64,000 nt of DNA from Escherichia coli (GCF_003334785.1 NZ_QOWV01000005.1), one strand, 5' to 3'; shown: positions 26,360 to 35,774, counted from the stretch's first letter. Translations and numbers: made by a program. Notes: generated by a model from the sequence alone, not told the origin.

Positions 26360-27100
26360 GTGAAGTTCAAAGTTATCGCCCTGGCGGCATTAATGGGTAT
26401 TAGCGGGATGGCAGCGCAGGCTAACGAATTGCCGGATGGACCGCATATTGTCACCTCCGGTACGGCAAGCGTGGATGCGGTGCCAGACATTGCCACTCTT
26501 GCGATTGAAGTTAACGTGGCCGCGAAGGATGCCGCTACTGCCAAGAAACAGGCAGATGAGCGCGTCGCACAATACATTTCCTTCCTTGAACTCAATCAGA
26601 TCGCGAAAAAAGATATCAGCTCAGCGAACTTACGCACCCAGCCAGATTATGATTATCAGGATGGTAAAAGTATCCTTAAAGGCTACCGCGCTGTGAGAAC
26701 GGTGGAAGTCACGCTCCGTCAGTTAGACAAACTGAATTCCTTGCTGGATGGCGCGCTGAAGGCGGGTCTTAACGAAATTCGTTCTGTGTCGCTGGGCGTG
26801 GCGCAGCCGGATGCCTATAAAGACAAAGCGCGTAAGGCAGCGATTGATAACGCGATTCATCAGGCGCAGGAACTGGCGAACGGCTTTCATCGTAAACTGG
26901 GGCCGGTATATAGCGTGCGCTACCATGTTTCCAACTATCAGCCCAGCCCAATGGTGCGGATGATGAAAGCCGATGCCGCGCCGGTGTCCGCCCAGGAAAC
27001 TTACGAGCAGGCCGCTATTCAGTTTGATGATCAGGTCGATGTGGTCTTCCAGTTAGAACCTGTGGATCAACAACCCGCTAAAACACCTGCAGCACAATAA
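26360..27100 (+). CDS. yggE: Periplasmic/OM oxidative-stress-associated protein YggE (DUF541, SIMPL-like)
   Basis: 246-aa ORF with N-terminal signal peptide MKFKVIALAALMGISGMAAQA. Confidence 0.9.
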   Translation: MKFKVIALAALMGISGMAAQANELPDGPHIVTSGTASVDAVPDIATLAIEVNVAAKDAATAKKQADERVAQYISFLELNQIAKKDISSANLRTQPDYDYQDGKSILKGYRAVRTVEVTLRQLDKLNSLLDGALKAGLNEIRSVSLGVAQPDAYKDKARKAAIDNAIHQAQELANGFHRKLGPVYSVRYHVSNYQPSPMVRMMKADAAPVSAQETYEQAAIQFDDQVDVVFQLEPVDQQPAKTPAAQ

Positions 27101-27266
27101 TATTTGTAGCCCGACGTATTCGTCGGGCTAATGCCTTTACCCGATATTGCCTCCTTTTTCTGTAATTTTCTGTAAAACCATGACGTAATCACCTATCTTT
27201 GCTCGCGGTTTCATCAAGGATAGGCTGACTGAAACGGTTAAGCGGACAAGGATGCGGGGGAGGGGG

Positions 27267-28163
27267 ATGGACATTTTTATTTCGAAAAAGATGCGCAATT
27301 TCATTTTATTAGCGCAAACCAATAATATTGCCCGGGCGGCAGAAAAAATCCATATGACGGCTTCGCCATTTGGTAAAAGCATTGCCGCGCTGGAAGAACA
27401 AATTGGCTATACGCTATTTACCCGCAAAGATAATAATATCAGCCTCAATAAAGCCGGACAGGAACTGTATCAAAAACTGTTCCCGGTTTATCAACGGCTT
27501 TCTGCGATTGATAATGAAATCCATAACTCAGGGCGTCGTTCACGAGAAATTGTGATTGGCATAGATAATACTTATCCGACAATTATTTTCGATCAGTTGA
27601 TTAGTCTCGGAGATAAGTATGAAGGCGTGACCGCCCAGCCAGTTGAGTTCAGCGAAAATGGCGTTATCGATAATCTTTTTGACCGCCAGTTAGATTTTAT
27701 TATCTCCCCACAGCATGTATCTGCACGAGTTCAGGAACTGGAAAACCTGACTATCAGTGAACTACCACCGCTGCGATTAGGCTTTCTCGTTTCTCGCCGT
27801 TATGAAGAGCGACAAGAGCAAGAGCTGCTTCAGGAGCTGCCCTGGCTACAAATGCGCTTTCAGAACCGGGCCAACTTCGAAGCAATGATTGATGCGAATA
27901 TGCGACCTTGTGGGATCAATCCAACCATTATTTATCGTCCCTACAGTTTTATGGCCAAAATCAGCGCCGTGGAGCGCGGACATTTTCTGACGGTGATCCC
28001 GCATTTTGCCTGGCGACTGGTGAATCCGGCAACGCTGAAATATTTTGATGCACCGCACAGGCCGATGTATATGCAGGAATATCTTTATTCAATCAGAAAT
28101 CATCGTTATACCGCCACGATGCTTCAGCATATTGCTGAAGATCGTGACGGGACGAGTCATTAA
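27267..28163 (+). CDS. ygfI: LysR-family transcriptional regulator
   Basis: N-terminal HTH typical of LysR-type regulators; convergent with scpC and overlaps its 3' end by 4 nt; choice of start codon uncertain. Confidence 0.85.
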   Translation: MDIFISKKMRNFILLAQTNNIARAAEKIHMTASPFGKSIAALEEQIGYTLFTRKDNNISLNKAGQELYQKLFPVYQRLSAIDNEIHNSGRRSREIVIGIDNTYPTIIFDQLISLGDKYEGVTAQPVEFSENGVIDNLFDRQLDFIISPQHVSARVQELENLTISELPPLRLGFLVSRRYEERQEQELLQELPWLQMRFQNRANFEAMIDANMRPCGINPTIIYRPYSFMAKISAVERGHFLTVIPHFAWRLVNPATLKYFDAPHRPMYMQEYLYSIRNHRYTATMLQHIAEDRDGTSH

Positions 28164-29638
28164 CCCAGCATCGAGCCGGTTGCAATTAAATTACGGTGTA
28201 AGTCGAAGACGTGGCTAAGATCGTGGTGAATATGTCCGCCAGGCGCATTTTCCAGATAGCGATGCAGATAATCCCGATACATAGGATGTGCACAATTATC
28301 AATGATAGTGCGGGCGCGTTGAAGCGGGGAAAGACCGCGCAGATCGGCGATCCCTTGTTCGGTGATGATCACTTTGACGCTGTGTTCGCTGTGATCAACA
28401 TGGCTGCACATTGGCACGACGGTTGAGATCTTGCCTTCTTTAGCAATCGACGGGGCCATAAAGATCGACAGATACGCGTTGCGTTCAAAATCACCGCTGC
28501 CGCCGATGCCGTTCATCAGATCGACCCCGGCTACGTGTGTTGAGTTGGCATGCCCGTAAATATCAAACTCCAGGCCGACGTTCAGAGCGATGACGCCCAG
28601 ACGACGGATGATTTCCGGGTTATTGGAAATCTCCTGCGGACGCAACACAATGCGGCTGGCAAAGTAATCCATATTGTCGTAAATCTTGCGCAGGGAATCG
28701 GCCGAGATTGTCAGGCTGGAGGCGCTGGCCCCGCTGATTTTGCCGGTTTCCAGTAAATGCACCACCGATTCCTGTAGCACTTCCGAATACATCATAAACG
28801 GAGGAATTACCGGGTTTTCCCCCAGACGCGCCATTACCGCATTATTGATATTGCCCACGCCACTTTGCAGCGGCAGAAATTCCGGCGGAATACGCCCATG
28901 CGCCATTTCCTGCAATAAGAACGTGACCACGTTATCGGCAATCTGCTGGCACATGGGATTTTGCTTATCCAGCATATTACCGGCGTCGGGCAAGTTGGTT
29001 TCCACGACGGCGACAATCTTTTTCGGATCGATTTGCACATAGCGGGTACCGACGCGATCCATTGCATGGAAGATCGACACGCTATTGCGCCGCGGTGGCG
29101 CGCCAGGAATCACAATATCCGCCAGTTCTGCAACGCGCGGATCGTGATAGTGATTGAGTTCAATGATCACTTTCTTCGCCCGCAGCAGCCAGGTCGGCGC
29201 ATTACCGATCCCGCTGGTTAACCAGACTCGACCATCCGGTGCCAGTGCCGATGCTTCAATGACGGCAACATCAATGTCGCCGAAGAAACCGTAATTGACC
29301 ATTTGCGCCACTTCGCTCAAATGCAGGTCAACGAAACTCACCGCGCCCTGATTGATCTTTTTACGTAAACCGGACGATGTTTGATATGGCGCACGCCAGG
29401 AAACAGCATCGGCGTCAGAAAGTACATCGTCAGCGGCGGCGCTGATTGACGCACCCGTCAGAAGGCGAATTTGATACGGCTTTTTGGCCTCATGCTGTTC
29501 GTTAGCTCTGCGGGCAATCGCGGTGGGTAGGGCTTTCGGCGAACCCGCCGGGGTAAAGCCGCTAAATGCCACCATGTCGTTATGCTGGATAATTTCTGCC
29601 GCTTCATTGGCGGTCATCCTTGTCCACTGAGTTTCCAT
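28160..29638 (-). CDS. scpC: Propionyl-CoA:succinate CoA-transferase
   Basis: 492-aa ORF recognised as YgfH (acetyl-CoA hydrolase/transferase family); last gene of the sbm operon. Confidence 0.93.
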   Translation of the reverse strand: METQWTRMTANEAAEIIQHNDMVAFSGFTPAGSPKALPTAIARRANEQHEAKKPYQIRLLTGASISAAADDVLSDADAVSWRAPYQTSSGLRKKINQGAVSFVDLHLSEVAQMVNYGFFGDIDVAVIEASALAPDGRVWLTSGIGNAPTWLLRAKKVIIELNHYHDPRVAELADIVIPGAPPRRNSVSIFHAMDRVGTRYVQIDPKKIVAVVETNLPDAGNMLDKQNPMCQQIADNVVTFLLQEMAHGRIPPEFLPLQSGVGNINNAVMARLGENPVIPPFMMYSEVLQESVVHLLETGKISGASASSLTISADSLRKIYDNMDYFASRIVLRPQEISNNPEIIRRLGVIALNVGLEFDIYGHANSTHVAGVDLMNGIGGSGDFERNAYLSIFMAPSIAKEGKISTVVPMCSHVDHSEHSVKVIITEQGIADLRGLSPLQRARTIIDNCAHPMYRDYLHRYLENAPGGHIHHDLSHVFDLHRNLIATGSMLG

Positions 29639-29661
29639 TTTTACTCCTTCGTTCGCAGGGA

Positions 29662-30447
29662 TTAATGACCAACGAAATTAGGTTTACGTTTTTCGAGGAA
29701 AGCGTTCATCCCTTCCTGGTAATCTTCGCTGTCATACACCGCGCGGCGCATCCCCTGAATACGTTCAAATTCATCGGAGTTCATGGTGTGTGCTTCGCCC
29801 AGTACACGCAGCTCTTCTTTGATAACGGCAATGGCTAACGGCGCTTTCTCAGAGATGTGGTGCGCCATTTGTAAGGTGAAATCTTCCAGTTCTTCCACTT
29901 CCACAACATGGTTGAGGATGCCGACAGCCAGCGCGCGCTGGGCGGTGATTGGCGAAGCGGTAAAAATCAGCTCTTTGACAATGTGGAAGCCCGCGTCGCG
30001 GGTCAGGTTGTGAATGCCGACCAGGTTATACGGGACGCCGAGGTTTACAGGCGTCATTGAGAAGGTTGAGGTACTGGCGGCGATGATCAGATCGGAACTC
30101 ATGATCATTTCAAATGCGCCACCCCAAACACTACCTTCCACCATCGAAATGATCGGTTTCGGGAATTTTTGGATCATGCGGGTGATTTGACGCAATGGAT
30201 CATCATAGGAGAGCGGATCGCGACCGCCAGACGGCAGTTCGTGAATATCGTGACCTGCGGAGAAGACTTTGGATCCACTCGGTGCGCGCAAAATGATACA
30301 GCGAATTTCCGGCCGGTTGAGATCGCTTAACGCCTGCATAAGATCATCAATAAAGACTTTACTTAAGGCATTAAGTTTTCGGCCATAGTTAAACTCAATG
30401 ACCGCCACTTTGTTGATAGTGACAACGTTAACATACTGATAAGACAT
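29662..30447 (-). CDS. scpB: Methylmalonyl-CoA decarboxylase (crotonase fold)
   Basis: Translation MSYQYVNVVTINKVAVIEFNYGRKLNALSK... recognised as YgfG; start trimmed 14 codons. Confidence 0.93.
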   Translation of the reverse strand: MSYQYVNVVTINKVAVIEFNYGRKLNALSKVFIDDLMQALSDLNRPEIRCIILRAPSGSKVFSAGHDIHELPSGGRDPLSYDDPLRQITRMIQKFPKPIISMVEGSVWGGAFEMIMSSDLIIAASTSTFSMTPVNLGVPYNLVGIHNLTRDAGFHIVKELIFTASPITAQRALAVGILNHVVEVEELEDFTLQMAHHISEKAPLAIAVIKEELRVLGEAHTMNSDEFERIQGMRRAVYDSEDYQEGMNAFLEKRKPNFVGH

Positions 30448-30457
30448 AAAAATTCCT

Positions 30458-31453
30458 TTAATCAAAATATTGCGTCTGGATAAATTCACTGAGCTGCCGC
30501 AGGCCGGTGCGCGGTGAGAGCGTATTGTTTTTGACCGCTAAAAGCGTCTGGCGGTAATAGCGATCGAAATCTTCATTCGCGAACAGGTGATTCAGTACTT
30601 CTTCTTCGGTCTGCTTACGCAGCCATTCCACCGATTGTTGTTGCCGCACTTGTTGTAAACGACCACTGGCAGTTAGCGCGGTTTTGAAGTCGATGATGGC
30701 GTGCCAGATCTCATCGATTCCACGTTTTTCCAGTGCGCTACAAGTCAGAACCCGTGGCTGCCATTCGTCGTATTTACGTCGCAGAATATGCAGGGCACTC
30801 TCGTACATATGCCGGGCAATGGCGACATTGGTATGGTTATCGCCATCGTCTTTGTTGATAACGATCAGATCAGCCACTTCCATCAGCCCTTTTTTAATGC
30901 CCTGCAGATCATCGCCGCCACCGGCAATTTGCAACGAGATAAAACAGTCCACCATGCGGGCGACTTCTGTTTCCGACTGCCCGACGCCAACCGTTTCGAC
31001 AATCACTACGTCATAACCCGCTGCTTCGCATAACAGCATTAATTCCCGCGCTCGCTGACTGGCACCGCCCAGATGACCGGAGGATGGTACCGGGCGAATA
31101 AACGCCGCTTCGGCACGCGCCAGGTCATTCATGCGGGTTTTATCCCCGAGAATGCTACCGCCAGTGACCGGGCTGCTGGGATCGACCGCAATAACCGCGA
31201 CCTTTAATCCCTCTCGAATCAACAACATGCCAAAGGCCTCAAGAAAGGTACTTTTCCCCGCGCCGGGGGTGCCGGTAACGCCCAGTCGCAGGGTGTTACC
31301 GCAGTACGGCATAATGGCATCAAGCAGCTGCGTACTTAGTGCCTGATGACGCGGGTGACGGCTTTCCACCAGCGTCATGGCCTGGGCGAGTGTGGCACGC
31401 TCACCCTGACGTAAGCGGCGAATACTTTCTGCCAGCGTGGCTTCATTAATCAT
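30458..31453 (-). CDS. argK: MeaB/ArgK-type G-protein chaperone for methylmalonyl-CoA mutase
   Basis: 331-aa ORF with P-loop GTPGAGKST; overlaps the scpA 3' end by 8 nt. Confidence 0.93.
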
Positions 31454-33590
31454 GATGCTGGCTTATCAGATTCAGTACGTCGCGCACACTGTCGAGCATA
31501 GGTGTACCTGGACCATAAATCGCCGCCACGCCGCGCTCTTGCAGGAAGGCGTAATCCTGCGGCGGAATGACGCCACCCGCGACCACGCAGATATCTTCGC
31601 GTCCCCATTTTTTCAGCGCTTCGACCAGTTCCGGGATCAGCGTTTTATGACCGGCAGCCAGTGAGGATGCGCCCACTACGTGAACGTCGTTTTCTACGGC
31701 CAGGCGGGCGATCTCTTCAGGTGTAGAGAACATCGGGCTTAAATCTACGTCGAAACCGAGATCGGAATAGGCGCTGGCGATCACTTTCGCGCCGCGATCG
31801 TGTCCATCCTGGCCCATCTTAGCGATCAGAATGCGCGGGCGACGACCATTGTCGGCAAGGAACTGCTCCGTTTGCGCAACAATGGCATCGAACTCGGAGG
31901 CCGATTTCTCAGACTGATGATAGCTTTGCGCAATCACGCCGGTAACACACTGGCTTGGCACCAGATAACGGTCGAAAGCGACTTCCAGCGCATCGGAAAT
32001 TTCACCCAGGGTGGCGCGAACGCGAGCGGCATTAACAGCGGCAGCCAGCAGGTTTTCGTTATGCTGTGCGGCGTGAGTCAGGGCGTTCAACGCGGCGGTT
32101 ACGGCGGCATCATCACGGGTGGCGCGAATGCGTTCCAGCGAAGCAATTTGCTCGTTACGCACCATCACGTTGTCGATCTCAAGTACATCGGTTTCGTCTT
32201 CGTGATCCAGTTTGTACTTGTTGACACCAACGATGACACGCTTGCCCTGGTCGATCAGCGACTGTTCGCGCGCTGAGGCCTCTTCGATCATTCGTTTTGG
32301 CAGACCTGCTTCGATCGCTTTCGCCATGCCACCGGCTTCGTCGATCTGTTGGATAATAGCTCTGGCTTGTTTGACGATTTGATCGGTCAGCGACTCAATG
32401 TAATAGGATCCGGCCAGTGGATCGACGGTGCGGCAGAGTTCTGATTCTTCCTGGATGATGATCTGGGTGTTGCGGGCAATGCGTGCTGAGAAATCGGTAG
32501 GCAAACCAAGCGCTTCGTCAAAGGCGTTGGTATGCAGTGACTGAGTACCGCCCAGCGTCGCAGCCAGCGCTTCAATGGTGGTGCGGATAACGTTGTTATA
32601 CGGATCCTGTTCAGTCAGGCTCCAGCCTGAGGTCTGGCAGTGGGTACGCAGCGCCAGTGATTTCGGGTCCTGTGCGCCAAATCCACTGACCGCTTCGCTC
32701 CATAAATAACGTGCCGCACGCAACATGGCGACGTTCATAAACAGATCCATGCCGATGCCGAAGAAGAACGACAGGCGAGGAGCGAAGTCATCAATTTTCA
32801 GTCCGGCAGAGATTGCTGCTTTGATGTACTCAATCCCATCAGCGAGCGTAAATGCTACCTGCTGCACGCAGTTGGCACCCGCTTCACCCATGTGGTAACC
32901 GCTGATACTGATGGTATTAAATCGCGGCATGTTGCCGGAACACCAGGCGATGATGTCGGCGATAATGCGCATTGACGGTTTTGGTGGGTAAATATAGGTG
33001 TTGCGGCAGAGGTACTCTTTGAGAATATCGTTTTGAATGGTGCCGGTCAGTTTATCAGGTGTAACACCTTGCTCTTCTGCGGCGACGATATAAAACGCCA
33101 GTACTGGTAGCACTGCGCCATTCATGGTCATCGAAACCGACATTTTATCCAGCGGGATCTGGTCGAACAGGACTTTCATATCTTCCACGGTGTCGATAGC
33201 GACGCCCGCTTTGCCGACGTCGCCCGCCACGCGCGGGTTATCGGAGTCGTAGCCACGGTGGGTGGCAAGGTCAAACGCAACGGAAAGACCTTTTTGCCCG
33301 GCGGCCAGGTTACGGCGATAAAAAGCGTTGGACTCTTTTGCTGTTGAAAAACCAGCATACTGACGGATGGTCCACGGTTGGGCGGTATACATAGTGGCAC
33401 GCGGGCCACGAACGTAGGGCGGCAAACCAGGAAGGGTACCTGTCACCTCCAGATTATCGAGATCGGCTTCGGTATACAGCGGCTTGATGGCGATCCCTTC
33501 CGCGGTTTGATGAACCAGCGAGTCGACAGTTTTCTCCCGACGGCTCAATTCCTTGTTGGCAAGCTGTTGCCACTCCTGCACGTTAGACAT
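31446..33590 (-). CDS. scpA: Methylmalonyl-CoA mutase (coenzyme B12-dependent)
   Basis: Translation [40 protein letters not shown]... recognised as Sbm; start trimmed 7 codons. Confidence 0.95.
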
Positions 33591-33793
33591 TATTTGCTCC
33601 GTAAAACGCAATCAAAATGAGGGTATTTGCGCCTACGGTGAGCTTTTTACGTGGGTTTGTCGCCAGCAAAAAAAATGCATTCAGACGTCGTTTTTTGCCG
33701 CCTGAGATTTGTCTATTTTGTGATGTGATTCAAGGAATACAAAAAGAAGTGAGGACAACGCCTGATATGTGCTATCAGGCATTATTTGATGGA

Positions 33794-34687
33794 TTAATCC
33801 TGACGAAGGACTTTGTGACCATAATCGAGTAACGCATCAGTGACTTTACGCATCATGCGGCTTTCAGGAGCAAAGCGGTGCCAGTAGAGCATCCGTCGTT
33901 GAAATAGCCCAGGCGTTAAGTCAATCAGTTCACCGCTGGCCAGCTCTTTCTCGATTTGCAGGTGCGGGATCATACAGCAGGTGGTGCCCTGGCGAGCAAG
34001 TTGTACGAACGCTTCTGAAGAATTAACGATATGGCAGGGCACGCTGCCTGGAGGCAGATCGAAGTTTTGCTGCAAAAAGGCCTGGTGCATATCGTCAAGA
34101 TGGTCAAACGCGACCACTGGCGCTTTCAGTAATGCCGAACGCGTTACGCCGTTAGGGAAATATTTTTCGGCAAAGGGTTTTGAGCTGACGAACAGATAGT
34201 CGAGCGCACCAAGTTTATCGACAAGACAACTCGGCAGCGCCTGATGTTGAATACTCACCGCGCCGACCACTTCGCCGCGGCGCAGACGTTCCTGAGTGCG
34301 GGTTTCATCTTCTACCTGCAAGTTGAGGCGGATAGGCGAATCAGCCAACACAGGAGCCAGTGCAGGAAGCAACCACGTCGCCAGACTGTCGGCGTTGACC
34401 GCCAGTGAAAGCAGCAGCGGAGTCGAACCGGTTTGTTCATCGCCCAGCCACTCTTCTTCCAGCAACTCCACCTGGCGCAGCAGTGCCAGCAGTTTTTGCC
34501 CTTGTTCCGTCGGGCGCGGCGGTACGGTACGCACCAACAGCGGCTGCCCGAACATATTTTCCAGTTGCTTAATGCGCTGTGAGACGGCTGATTGTGTAAT
34601 GCACAGCTTTTGTGCCGCGCGCTCAAATCCTCGTTCACGTATCACCGCATCCAGTGCCTGTAATGTTCTGTAGTCCGGGCGTTTCAT
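33794..34687 (-). CDS. argP: LysR-family regulator ArgP (IciA)
   Basis: Translation [43 protein letters not shown]... recognised; start trimmed 22 codons. Confidence 0.95.
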
Positions 34688-35114
34688 TGCTGTTGTCTGC
34701 TCCTGGTAAATGCTTTTTCCTGCACTATGACACAATTTTGTGTCAGGTTGCATATACCGAAGCCGTCGGCGGGTAACATTTGTATCCGTGGTTAAAAGCG
34801 CAGCTTAAAAGATCAGGGATTTGCGCTAATGCATTTCGCTCAGCGAGTTCGCGCCCTGGTTGTGTTGAATGGCGTGGCGTTATTGCCTCAATTTGCCTGT
34901 AAACAGGGGCTTGCGAACGGTGAACTGGTGCGCCTGTTTGCACCGTGGAGCGGCATACCCAGACCGTTGTATGCTTTATTTGCGGGGCGAAAGGGGATGC
35001 CTGCCATTGCGCGATATTTTATGGATGAGTTAACCACGCGGCTTGCCAACGGGGTCTGAATCGCTTTTTTTGTATATAATGCGTGTGAAATTTCATACCA
35101 CAGGCGAAACGATC

Positions 35115-35774
35115 ATGACGCAGGATGAATTGAAAAAAGCAGTAGGATGGGCGGCACTTCAGTATGTTCAGCCCGGCACCATTGTTGGTGTAGGTACAGG
35201 TTCCACCGCCGCACACTTTATTGACGCGCTCGGTACAATGAAAGGCCAGATTGAAGGGGCCGTTTCCAGTTCAGATGCTTCCACTGAAAAACTGAAAAGC
35301 CTCGGCATTCACGTTTTTGATCTCAACGAAGTCGACAGCCTTGGCATCTACGTTGATGGCGCAGATGAAATCAACGGCCACATGCAAATGATCAAAGGCG
35401 GCGGCGCGGCGCTGACCCGTGAAAAAATCATTGCTTCGGTTGCAGAAAAATTTATCTGTATTGCAGACGCTTCCAAGCAGGTTGATATTCTGGGTAAATT
35501 CCCGCTGCCAGTAGAAGTTATCCCGATGGCACGTAGTGCAGTGGCGCGTCAGCTGGTGAAACTGGGCGGTCGTCCGGAATACCGTCAGGGCGTGGTGACC
35601 GATAATGGCAACGTGATCCTCGACGTCCACGGCATGGAAATCCTTGACCCGATAGCGATGGAAAACGCCATAAATGCGATTCCTGGCGTGGTGACTGTTG
35701 GCTTGTTTGCTAACCGTGGCGCGGACGTTGCGCTGATTGGCACACCTGACGGTGTCAAAACCATTGTGAAATGA
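35115..35774 (+). CDS. rpiA: Ribose-5-phosphate isomerase A
   Basis: Translation [40 protein letters not shown]... recognised; start trimmed 24 codons. Confidence 0.96.

Follow-up and report, generated by a model that had tools for sequence, protein, structure and literature searches.

A proposed five-gene scp–srsR module with a conserved upstream element and a candidate regulator in Escherichia coli and other Enterobacterales

The scp operon of Escherichia coli appears to be part of a larger evolutionary unit. We infer from comparative sequence data that this unit comprises five genes, the operon and the convergent regulator gene srsR, that it is kept by selection where it is present, and that it has its own conserved upstream control element. 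The gene argP, on the other side of the operon, would merely be a positional neighbour outside the module. The scp operon is a textbook part of the annotated E. coli K-12 genome and is widely used for metabolic engineering (propionate, 1-propanol, odd-chain products). It has long been known and is barely expressed, and finding it again adds nothing new; what our analysis adds is the linkage to srsR, the bipartite upstream element, the purifying selection and a common deletion. These comparative data narrow the question of when E. coli uses the operon and what turns it on.

We analysed a stretch of 64,000 nucleotides from E. coli (GCF_003334785.1 NZ_QOWV01000005.1), here called the window, of which positions 27000–35000 have 100% nucleotide identity to E. 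coli K-12 MG1655 (window comparison). The four-gene set (Table 1) is almost certainly the scpA (sbm)–meaB (argK/ygfD)–scpB (ygfG)–scpC (ygfH) operon already described in E. coli K-12, and no evidence that contradicts this identity was met. Genes, order and junctions all equal those of the K-12 'sleeping beauty mutase' operon sbm-ygfD-ygfG-ygfH (Haller et al. 2000; Froese et al. 2009; both as cited in PMC3850637), with no difference between the two. In a profile search, all six proteins exceeded the curated NCBIfam cut-offs for their named families, for instance with 1252 bits for ScpA (cut-off 876), 494 bits for MeaB (cut-off 329), 487 bits for ScpB (cut-off 257), 753 bits for ScpC (cut-off 659) and 635 bits for SrsR (cut-off 425). 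The four gene identities and coordinates of the first-pass annotation are thus confirmed by the RefSeq annotation, the identity to MG1655 and the NCBIfam matches.

Table 1. Features of the scp locus, with positions counted from the first nucleotide of the window
Feature	Position	Strand	Description	Source
srsR (ygfI)	27267..28163	+	LysR-type regulator, convergent with scpC	RefSeq; NF047842 SrsR equivalog
scpC (ygfH)	28160..29638	-	propionyl-CoA:succinate CoA-transferase, 492 aa	RefSeq; TIGR03458 YgfH subfamily
scpB (ygfG)	29662..30447	-	biotin-independent crotonase-fold methylmalonyl-CoA decarboxylase, 261 aa	RefSeq; NF008506 equivalog
meaB (argK/ygfD)	30458..31453	-	mutase G-protein chaperone, 331 aa	RefSeq; NF006958 equivalog
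scpA (sbm)	31446..33590	-	adenosylcobalamin-dependent methylmalonyl-CoA mutase, 714 aa	RefSeq; NF006944 equivalog
argP (iciA)	33794..34687	-	LysR-type regulator, upstream of scpA, co-directional	RefSeq; NF002964/TIGR03298
Block C, second conserved block	33627..33648	-	AAAAAGCTCACCGTAGGCGCAA	upstream-region alignment
Bipartite non-coding element	33658..33700	-	CGGCAAAAAACGA-N14-TTTTTTGCTGGCGACA; block A 33695..33688, block B 33673..33658	
13-bp hairpin	33755..33785	-	directly after the argP stop; U-rich stretch a short distance beyond	
Deletion repeat, left copy	28299..28313	.	TCAATGATAGTGCGG; imperfect 15-nt direct repeat	breakpoint mapping in L002, L003
Deletion repeat, right copy, inside scpA	32572..32586	.	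TCAATGGTGGTGCGG; imperfect 15-nt direct repeat	

Gene identities, junctions, and cofactor and GTPase motifs were established directly in this analysis. The B12-binding DxHxxG motif of ScpA is intact (DGHDRG at residue 595), and MeaB contains the P-loop GTPGAGKS at residue 61 and the NKxD motif (NKDD) at residue 200. Solved structures exist for ScpB, which has a full-length match to PDB 1EF8/1EF9 and 6N92-97. The start codons are backed by conservation across species: the scpA ATG at 33590 and its GGAG ribosome-binding site are kept across 48 loci, the MDIF start of SrsR is kept in most species, and the start of ScpB is further backed by full-length identity to PDB 1EF8.

The tight coupling that had been noted for the locus is borne out by the sequence at every junction. 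The scpA stop and the meaB start overlap by 8 nt (ATGATTAA, read from the sequence), a gap of 10 nt with an AGGA ribosome-binding site separates meaB from scpB, and a gap of 23 nt with an AAGGAG ribosome-binding site separates scpB from scpC. At the 3' end, the stop codons of the convergent genes scpC and srsR overlap by 4 nt (TTAA). The four scp genes are co-directional, with overlapping or very short junctions, and occur in identical order in 48 loci of other species. They are translationally coupled and most likely form a single transcript. Its promoter would lie in the 203-nt spacer between argP and scpA (33591..33793) and would be weak and probably dependent on an activator. The text of the Cappable-seq and SMRT-Cappable-seq supplements holds no entry for the scp locus. 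Between 27000 and 35200 we found 14 terminator-like matches where 9.9 ± 3.8 are expected, which is chance level, and none of these lies in the short intergenic gaps.

In the published cycle, CoA is passed from propionyl-CoA to succinate by ScpC. The adenosylcobalamin-dependent ScpA, with MeaB as its GTPase chaperone, isomerises succinyl-CoA to methylmalonyl-CoA, which ScpB decarboxylates to propionyl-CoA in a biotin-independent step; overall, succinate is converted to propionate and CO2. For the enzymology of the operon, its low expression and its dependence on B12 we rely on the literature (PMC3850637, PMC5512728); the cycle, the enzyme activities and cobalamin-dependent propionate formation go back to Haller et al. 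2000, as cited in PMC3850637. The module had been called complete, and the four enzymes of such a module are indeed present. Its completeness is nevertheless disputed: according to PMC5512728 the operon lacks the methylmalonyl-CoA epimerase step and propionate is formed from glucose only once an epimerase is added, whereas 1-propanol was obtained from glucose without added epimerase in PMC3850637. Inside the module we found neither an epimerase gene nor any other additional gene, be it in K-12 or in any of the 48 loci; the genes on its flanks vary by context.

The Wood-Werkman pathway of propionibacteria uses the mutase MutAB, MeaB, a methylmalonyl-CoA epimerase, a biotin-dependent transcarboxylase and a CoA-transferase. 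Both systems include a B12-dependent step from succinyl-CoA to methylmalonyl-CoA with a MeaB-type chaperone, and both recycle CoA by a succinate CoA-transferase. In contrast to the Wood-Werkman pathway, the E. coli mutase is a single polypeptide of 714 aa, decarboxylation is carried out by a biotin-independent crotonase-fold enzyme instead of a transcarboxylase, and the epimerase gene is absent from the module in all 48 loci, by which the E. coli pathway is incomplete according to the argument of PMC5512728.

When comparing the locus across species, we observed synteny of all five genes in Escherichia, Citrobacter, Klebsiella, Salmonella arizonae/diarizonae, Yokenella, Kosakonia, Yersinia, Hafnia, Sodalis, Acerihabitans and others. 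The gene srsR is convergent with scpC and abuts it in each of the 47 loci whose sequence reaches this point, and also in Hafnia, in several unrelated genomic contexts. The gene argP adjoins the module only in the context shared by Escherichia, Citrobacter, Klebsiella and Salmonella, and is not beside it in Yersinia, Kosakonia, the Sodalis group, Hafnia, Superficieibacter and others. Thus, the description of an operon bracketed by two LysR regulators holds for the flanking genes themselves, but the two do not have equal standing, as srsR accompanies the operon in every context examined and argP does not. Nor is argP divergent, as had been claimed; it lies directly upstream of scpA on the same minus strand and is co-directional, 203 nt apart.

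The scp genes are under purifying selection as strong as that on their housekeeping neighbours, judging from dN/dS ratios of 0.015–0.09 overall compared to 0.008–0.03 for argP and rpiA. The ratios are 0.015–0.06 between K-12 and E. albertii and 0.02–0.09 in the comparisons with Citrobacter and Klebsiella. As the scp genes are under selection, the pathway is probably used in nature.

In E. coli itself, we found one common junction of a 4273-bp deletion in 1114 of 5426 complete genomes (~21%), ST131 included, where most of the operon is gone and srsR is intact; the breakpoints lie at an imperfect direct repeat (Table 1). The remnant carries further small deletions, and other genomes have IS insertions or IS-mediated deletions. 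Many genomes of clinical importance, among them ST131 and O18:H1, therefore lack the operon by way of one common deletion, of which we found no relevant prior account in the literature searched. About a fifth of the complete E. coli genomes have lost the operon, so at least one major lineage can do without it. In 4276 of the 5426 genomes, 80% or more of the operon is kept, at 95–100% identity.

Upstream of scpA, 45 of 47 loci contain the non-coding bipartite element AAWAAYGA-N14/15-TTTTTTG(C/A).., which is also found in Hafnia. Its internal spacing is fixed, whereas its distance to the scpA ATG varies from 79 to 260 nt. Block B contains a dyad of the T-N11-A type (TTG-N7-CAA), and such T-N11-A dyads are typical of LysR-family sites. 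We conclude that the element is probably an operator or a promoter region. An RNA function as terminator or attenuator was rejected as a general explanation: RNAalifold predicted zero pairs for the conserved block, and folds of single species were no better than shuffles (z between -2.5 and +1.2) except in three Kosakonia species (z from -3.9 to -7.5). Control by a cobalamin riboswitch was likewise rejected, as neither this nor any other Rfam family matched at E ≤ 1 on either strand of 26500..36000 and the upstream block has no conserved RNA structure.

Block C departs in Escherichia (GTAGGC/GTAAGC) from other enterics (GTATTC); in the alignment, the block C column reads GTATTCGCAA in other enterics and TATAAT in the Sodalis group. 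The promoter scan found no consensus sigma-70 promoter on the minus strand of 33591..33793, and a relaxed scan across species found no promoter at a conserved position. The GCGACA-N17-TACTAT/TATTAT of Kosakonia and the TATAAT of the Sodalis group have no counterpart in Escherichia, Citrobacter and Klebsiella.

These observations on the promoter could be taken to mean that the operon is an evolutionary relic heading for loss, silenced by promoter decay and serving no function in a bacterium unable to make B12. The spacer without a consensus promoter and the diverged block C of Escherichia would fit such a relic, as would the common 4.3-kb deletion with the remnant deletions and IS events elsewhere, and the report that wild-type cells form no detectable propionate (PMC3850637). 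Against decay stand dN/dS ratios as low as those of rpiA and argP, four reading frames and catalytic motifs that are all intact, and the large majority of genomes that retain the operon. We thus regard it as improbable that the operon is a relic.

The position of argP immediately upstream of scpA raises the question of whether ArgP regulates the operon or whether scp is expressed by read-through from argP. The two genes are co-directional and 203 nt apart, and the dyad in block B would suit any protein of the LysR family. The hairpin that follows the argP stop (RNA fold of -17.5 kcal/mol; z = -5.2 relative to 200 shuffles) can be read in two ways. It has no adjacent U-tract and was not called by the consensus terminator scan of the minus strand, so that some read-through is possible; at the same time, a hairpin of this stability speaks against read-through. 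It is likely a non-canonical argP terminator or a REP-like element. Against a role of ArgP, the upstream element is kept in genomes where argP is absent from the locus (Yersinia, Kosakonia, Hafnia, the Sodalis group, Superficieibacter and others), and no paper linking ArgP to scpA was found in the literature searched. Control through argP thus seems quite unlikely to us, and the comparative results suggest that SrsR and the 43-nt element are the better candidates.

SrsR (YgfI) may be the dedicated regulator of the operon, which it would activate in response to an effector by binding to the bipartite element in front of scpA; we consider this a serious possibility, though one that falls somewhat short of being probable. 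It is consistent with the persistent linkage of srsR to scpC across unrelated contexts, and the genera with SrsR homologues (Escherichia, Citrobacter, Klebsiella, Kosakonia, Yersinia, Hafnia, Sodalis, Acerihabitans and others) are largely the genera with ScpB loci. The upstream element points in the same direction, with its fixed internal spacing, the absence of an RNA fold and the LysR-type dyad. Also in its favour, the published target fucAO was not confirmed by an independent group (PMC11011485), so that the physiological regulon of SrsR is unsettled. The tight, persistent link of a regulator gene to a metabolic operon resembles a typical LysR system, as does the T-N11-A-type dyad in the conserved stretch that precedes the first gene. 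LysR genes are, however, typically transcribed divergently from their targets, whereas srsR faces the operon from its 3' end: the two are convergent, their stop codons overlap, and the putative control region is about 5.5 kb away.

Further observations also argue against SrsR. When ygfI was characterised and renamed, genomic SELEX with purified SrsR gave ten target loci, and, unlike what would be expected of a typical LysR system, none of them is at the scp operon (PMC9181523). In the 1114 genomes with the common deletion, srsR has remained intact, and a homologue with 68% identity lies beside cadCBA without scp genes. The best match within the element to a weight matrix built from 13 published SrsR boxes ranks 181st in the window, which is chance level, and the published box TCAGATTTTGC has no match with two or fewer mismatches in the argP–scpA spacer; the upstream block was thus rejected as a published SrsR box. 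We also found no shared motif in the region upstream of srsR that would indicate autoregulation.

Taken one step further, the five-gene module with its own bipartite operator (AAWAAYGA-N14/15-TTTTTTGCNGGCGACA) would have moved between Enterobacterales contexts under strong purifying selection, with SrsR as its cognate, effector-dependent activator. We put this forward only tentatively. If it is true, the operon would not be dead but would 'sleep' in laboratory E. coli for want of an inducer, and because of a weakened Escherichia promoter; the 'stress regulon' published for SrsR would then be a secondary one. As a side observation, not counted as evidence, the upstream block resembles by eye the T-rich repeats of the yfdO/yfdP SrsR site.

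The genes between the two LysR-family regulators srsR and argP are the known sleeping beauty mutase operon. Protein families were assigned by curated NCBIfam cut-offs, which all six proteins of the region exceed: the methylmalonyl-CoA mutase ScpA (1252 bits, cut-off 876), the GTPase MeaB (494, cut-off 329), the methylmalonyl-CoA decarboxylase ScpB (487, cut-off 257), the YgfH-type succinate CoA-transferase ScpC (753, cut-off 659), SrsR (635, cut-off 425) and ArgP/LysG (418, cut-off 197). The mutase retains the B12-binding DxHxxG motif and MeaB the P-loop and NKxD motifs, and PDB entries 1EF8/1EF9 and 6N92-97 are the ScpB protein. For exactly these genes, PMC3850637 cites Haller et al. 2000 for the cycle from succinate via succinyl-CoA, methylmalonyl-CoA and propionyl-CoA to propionate, and other authors' work for a very low native expression; the finding is therefore already known.

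Over 27000-35000 the sequence has 100% identity to E. coli K-12 MG1655, and some part of this segment is matched in each of the collection's 5426 complete E. coli genomes. A mechanical ORF list agrees with the RefSeq genes except for longer alternative starts. The annotated starts are those kept in other species, and that of ScpB gives exactly the chain that was crystallised.

Features of the operon region (window coordinates; genes converted from the RefSeq annotation of MG1655)
Feature	Coordinates	Strand	Source
srsR (formerly ygfI)	27267..28163	+	RefSeq MG1655
scpC	28160..29638	-	RefSeq MG1655
scpB	29662..30447	-	RefSeq MG1655
meaB (argK/ygfD)	30458..31453	-	RefSeq MG1655
scpA (sbm)	31446..33590	-	RefSeq MG1655
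argP	33794..34687	-	RefSeq MG1655
Bipartite element in K-12	33700..33658	- (operon strand)	upstream alignment
Imperfect 15-nt direct repeats bounding deletion	28299..28313 and 32572..32586		breakpoint mapping
Deleted segment	28314..32571		mapped in E. coli loci L002 and L003

The first-pass annotation, made from the sequence alone, described a real feature and was almost entirely accurate. All its junctions are correct: scpA and meaB overlap by 8 nt (ATGATTAA), gaps of 10 nt (with AGGA) and 23 nt (with AAGGAG) separate meaB from scpB and scpB from scpC, and the convergent scpC and srsR share TTAA in their stop codons (28160..28163), an abutment also found in most other species. It erred in calling argP divergent, as argP lies on the strand of scpA, co-directional and 203 nt upstream.

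A scan for ScpB in one genome per species yielded 48 loci; Hafnia paralvei was added later via its SrsR protein. The order scpA-meaB-scpB-scpC followed by a convergent srsR was found in 47 of the 47 loci reaching far enough, and in Hafnia. The genes argP, rpiA, yggE and argO are flanks only in Escherichia, Citrobacter, the Klebsiella oxytoca group, Salmonella enterica subsp. arizonae/diarizonae, Yokenella and close relatives. Mutually unrelated flanks were found in Yersinia, Kosakonia, Hafnia, Superficieibacter and the Sodalis/Acerihabitans group, and likewise in two records labelled Aeromonas and Martelella. Since srsR is constant in all contexts and argP in one, the conserved unit comprises five genes including srsR and has apparently been relocated, whereas argP is, judging from gene order, a positional neighbour in one context. 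The earlier description of an operon bracketed by two LysR regulators thus holds for the family of both flanking genes, but not for their equivalence. SrsR homologues make up one compact family extending to ~61% identity, and their named genera are for the most part those that also hold ScpB loci. One exception is a 68%-identical homologue downstream of cadC-cadB-cadA on two contigs built from public sequencing runs (L057 8001..8867 and L058 4432..5298), neither of which shows scp genes or remnants in its vicinity.

Compared with E. albertii, Citrobacter youngae and Klebsiella spallanzanii (dS ~0.7-1.5), the four scp genes have dN/dS values of 0.015-0.09, resembling argP and rpiA. By this measure, the operon is not decaying in lineages that retain it. 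This bears on whether the pathway is complete, as the first-pass annotation had stated. The four genes are all there, but completeness is disputed: with the operon expressed in minimal medium, propionate was made from glucose only with added methylmalonyl-CoA epimerase, and the pathway was termed incomplete (PMC5512728), whereas sbm-ygfD-ygfG expressed without epimerase gave 1-propanol from glucose (PMC3850637). No epimerase gene lies within the module in any species examined by locus comparison. As the coupling of mutase and decarboxylase persists under strong selection without one, we infer that the module probably functions in its present form under natural conditions.

An alignment of scpA upstream regions revealed a bipartite element, AAWAAYGA-N14/15-TTTTTTG(C/A)..., shared by 45 of 47 loci and by Hafnia; in 31 of those loci the second half consists of one invariant 16-mer, TTTTTTGCTGGCGACA. 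The element lies 79 to 260 nt from the start codon, depending on the locus, and is kept with or without argP upstream. Constant spacing between the two halves, combined with a varying distance to the ATG, is the pattern expected of an operator or promoter with a variable leader, which makes the element a candidate for such a site. RNA structure was rejected as a general explanation, since RNAalifold found no consensus pairs and single-sequence folds did not exceed shuffles except in Kosakonia. Only in the Kosakonia loci (L028, L029 and L033), ~90-130 nt upstream of scpA, the first half (block A) belongs to a perfect 10-bp palindrome (CCTGCGGCAA...TTGCCGCAGG) with a T-run behind it, and the fold resembles that of a strong intrinsic terminator (z = -3.9 to -7.5). 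The second half (block B) contains a TTG-N7-CAA dyad. T-N11-A patterns are generally associated with LysR-family sites; the dyad is a generic feature that does not identify the binding protein. A further block, AAAAAGCTCACCGTATTCGCAA, is kept among enterics, with Escherichia deviating (GTAGGC or GTAAGC). Near it, -10 hexamers are recognisable in Kosakonia and the Sodalis group, and none in Escherichia, Citrobacter or Klebsiella.

Which regulator might act here? For ArgP, our literature search found no paper linking it with scpA. SrsR would be suggested by synteny and co-distribution, a case weakened by SELEX and by the convergent arrangement: none of the ten target loci obtained by genomic SELEX lies near the operon (PMC9181523), and on one of them, fucAO, SrsR had no effect in an independent study (PMC11011485). 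Our sequence tests of the link were negative or neutral: the published SrsR box has no match at up to 2 mismatches in the argP-scpA spacer, the upstream element scores at chance level with a weight matrix from 13 published boxes, and no related motif occurs upstream of srsR. A dedicated control system of the operon, made up of SrsR and the conserved element, is hence a tentative reading, which we consider somewhat doubtful. The strongest published SrsR site (yfdO-yfdP spacer of MG1655, L054 5400..5520) consists of ~15-bp units, TCAGATTTTGAYGSG, arranged in tandem. The sequence before this array, ATTTTTTGCCAG, also forms the first 11 nt of block B in Yersinia, an unquantified resemblance only.

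No Rfam family, and hence no cobalamin riboswitch, matches anywhere in 26500..36000, and the 203-nt spacer holds no consensus sigma-70 promoter on the operon strand. Terminator-like matches occur at chance frequency across the region and not in the short intergenic gaps, whose length leaves no space for one. A stable 13-bp hairpin 3' of the argP stop codon (33785..33755, -17.5 kcal/mol, z = -5.2), with a U-rich stretch several bases away, is a plausible non-canonical argP terminator. As there is no room for a terminator between scpC and srsR, it follows from the sequence that transcripts from each side must run antisense into the other gene and overlap.

At least 80% of the operon is present in 4276 of the 5426 complete E. 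coli genomes. One identical deletion junction, found in 1114 of the 5426 (20.5%), joins the 3'-terminal 153 nt of scpC to approximately the first 1 kb of scpA via a 4273-bp deletion. Carriers include O25b:H4-ST131 and O18:H1 strains, and the strain names suggest phylogroup B2. Their scpA remnant has further deletions of 53 and 28 nt, the former being absent from two genomes with the junction. Carriers have intact srsR, argP and upstream element, and their srsR differs from K-12 by 6 non-synonymous and 19 synonymous changes. The literature that could be searched yielded no paper describing this deletion, which may still have been reported elsewhere. Individual E. coli genomes (NZ_AP021946.1, NZ_CP148461.1 and NZ_CP073946.1, our L004) have IS events in the compared region, namely ISKpn26 or IS30 insertions and one IS1-associated deletion of the 3' part of srsR and all that follows, up to the first 576 nt of scpA.

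Lastly, a third LysR-family gene has left its C-terminal part in the argP-rpiA gap, as a small ORF (34829..35059, + strand; 95% identity over 63 aa) annotated as 'LysR substrate-binding domain-containing protein'. Escherichia sp. E1V33 has this gene intact (298 aa) in the corresponding position (L046 2722..3618), where it adjoins a 209-aa ORF (L046 3719..4348).
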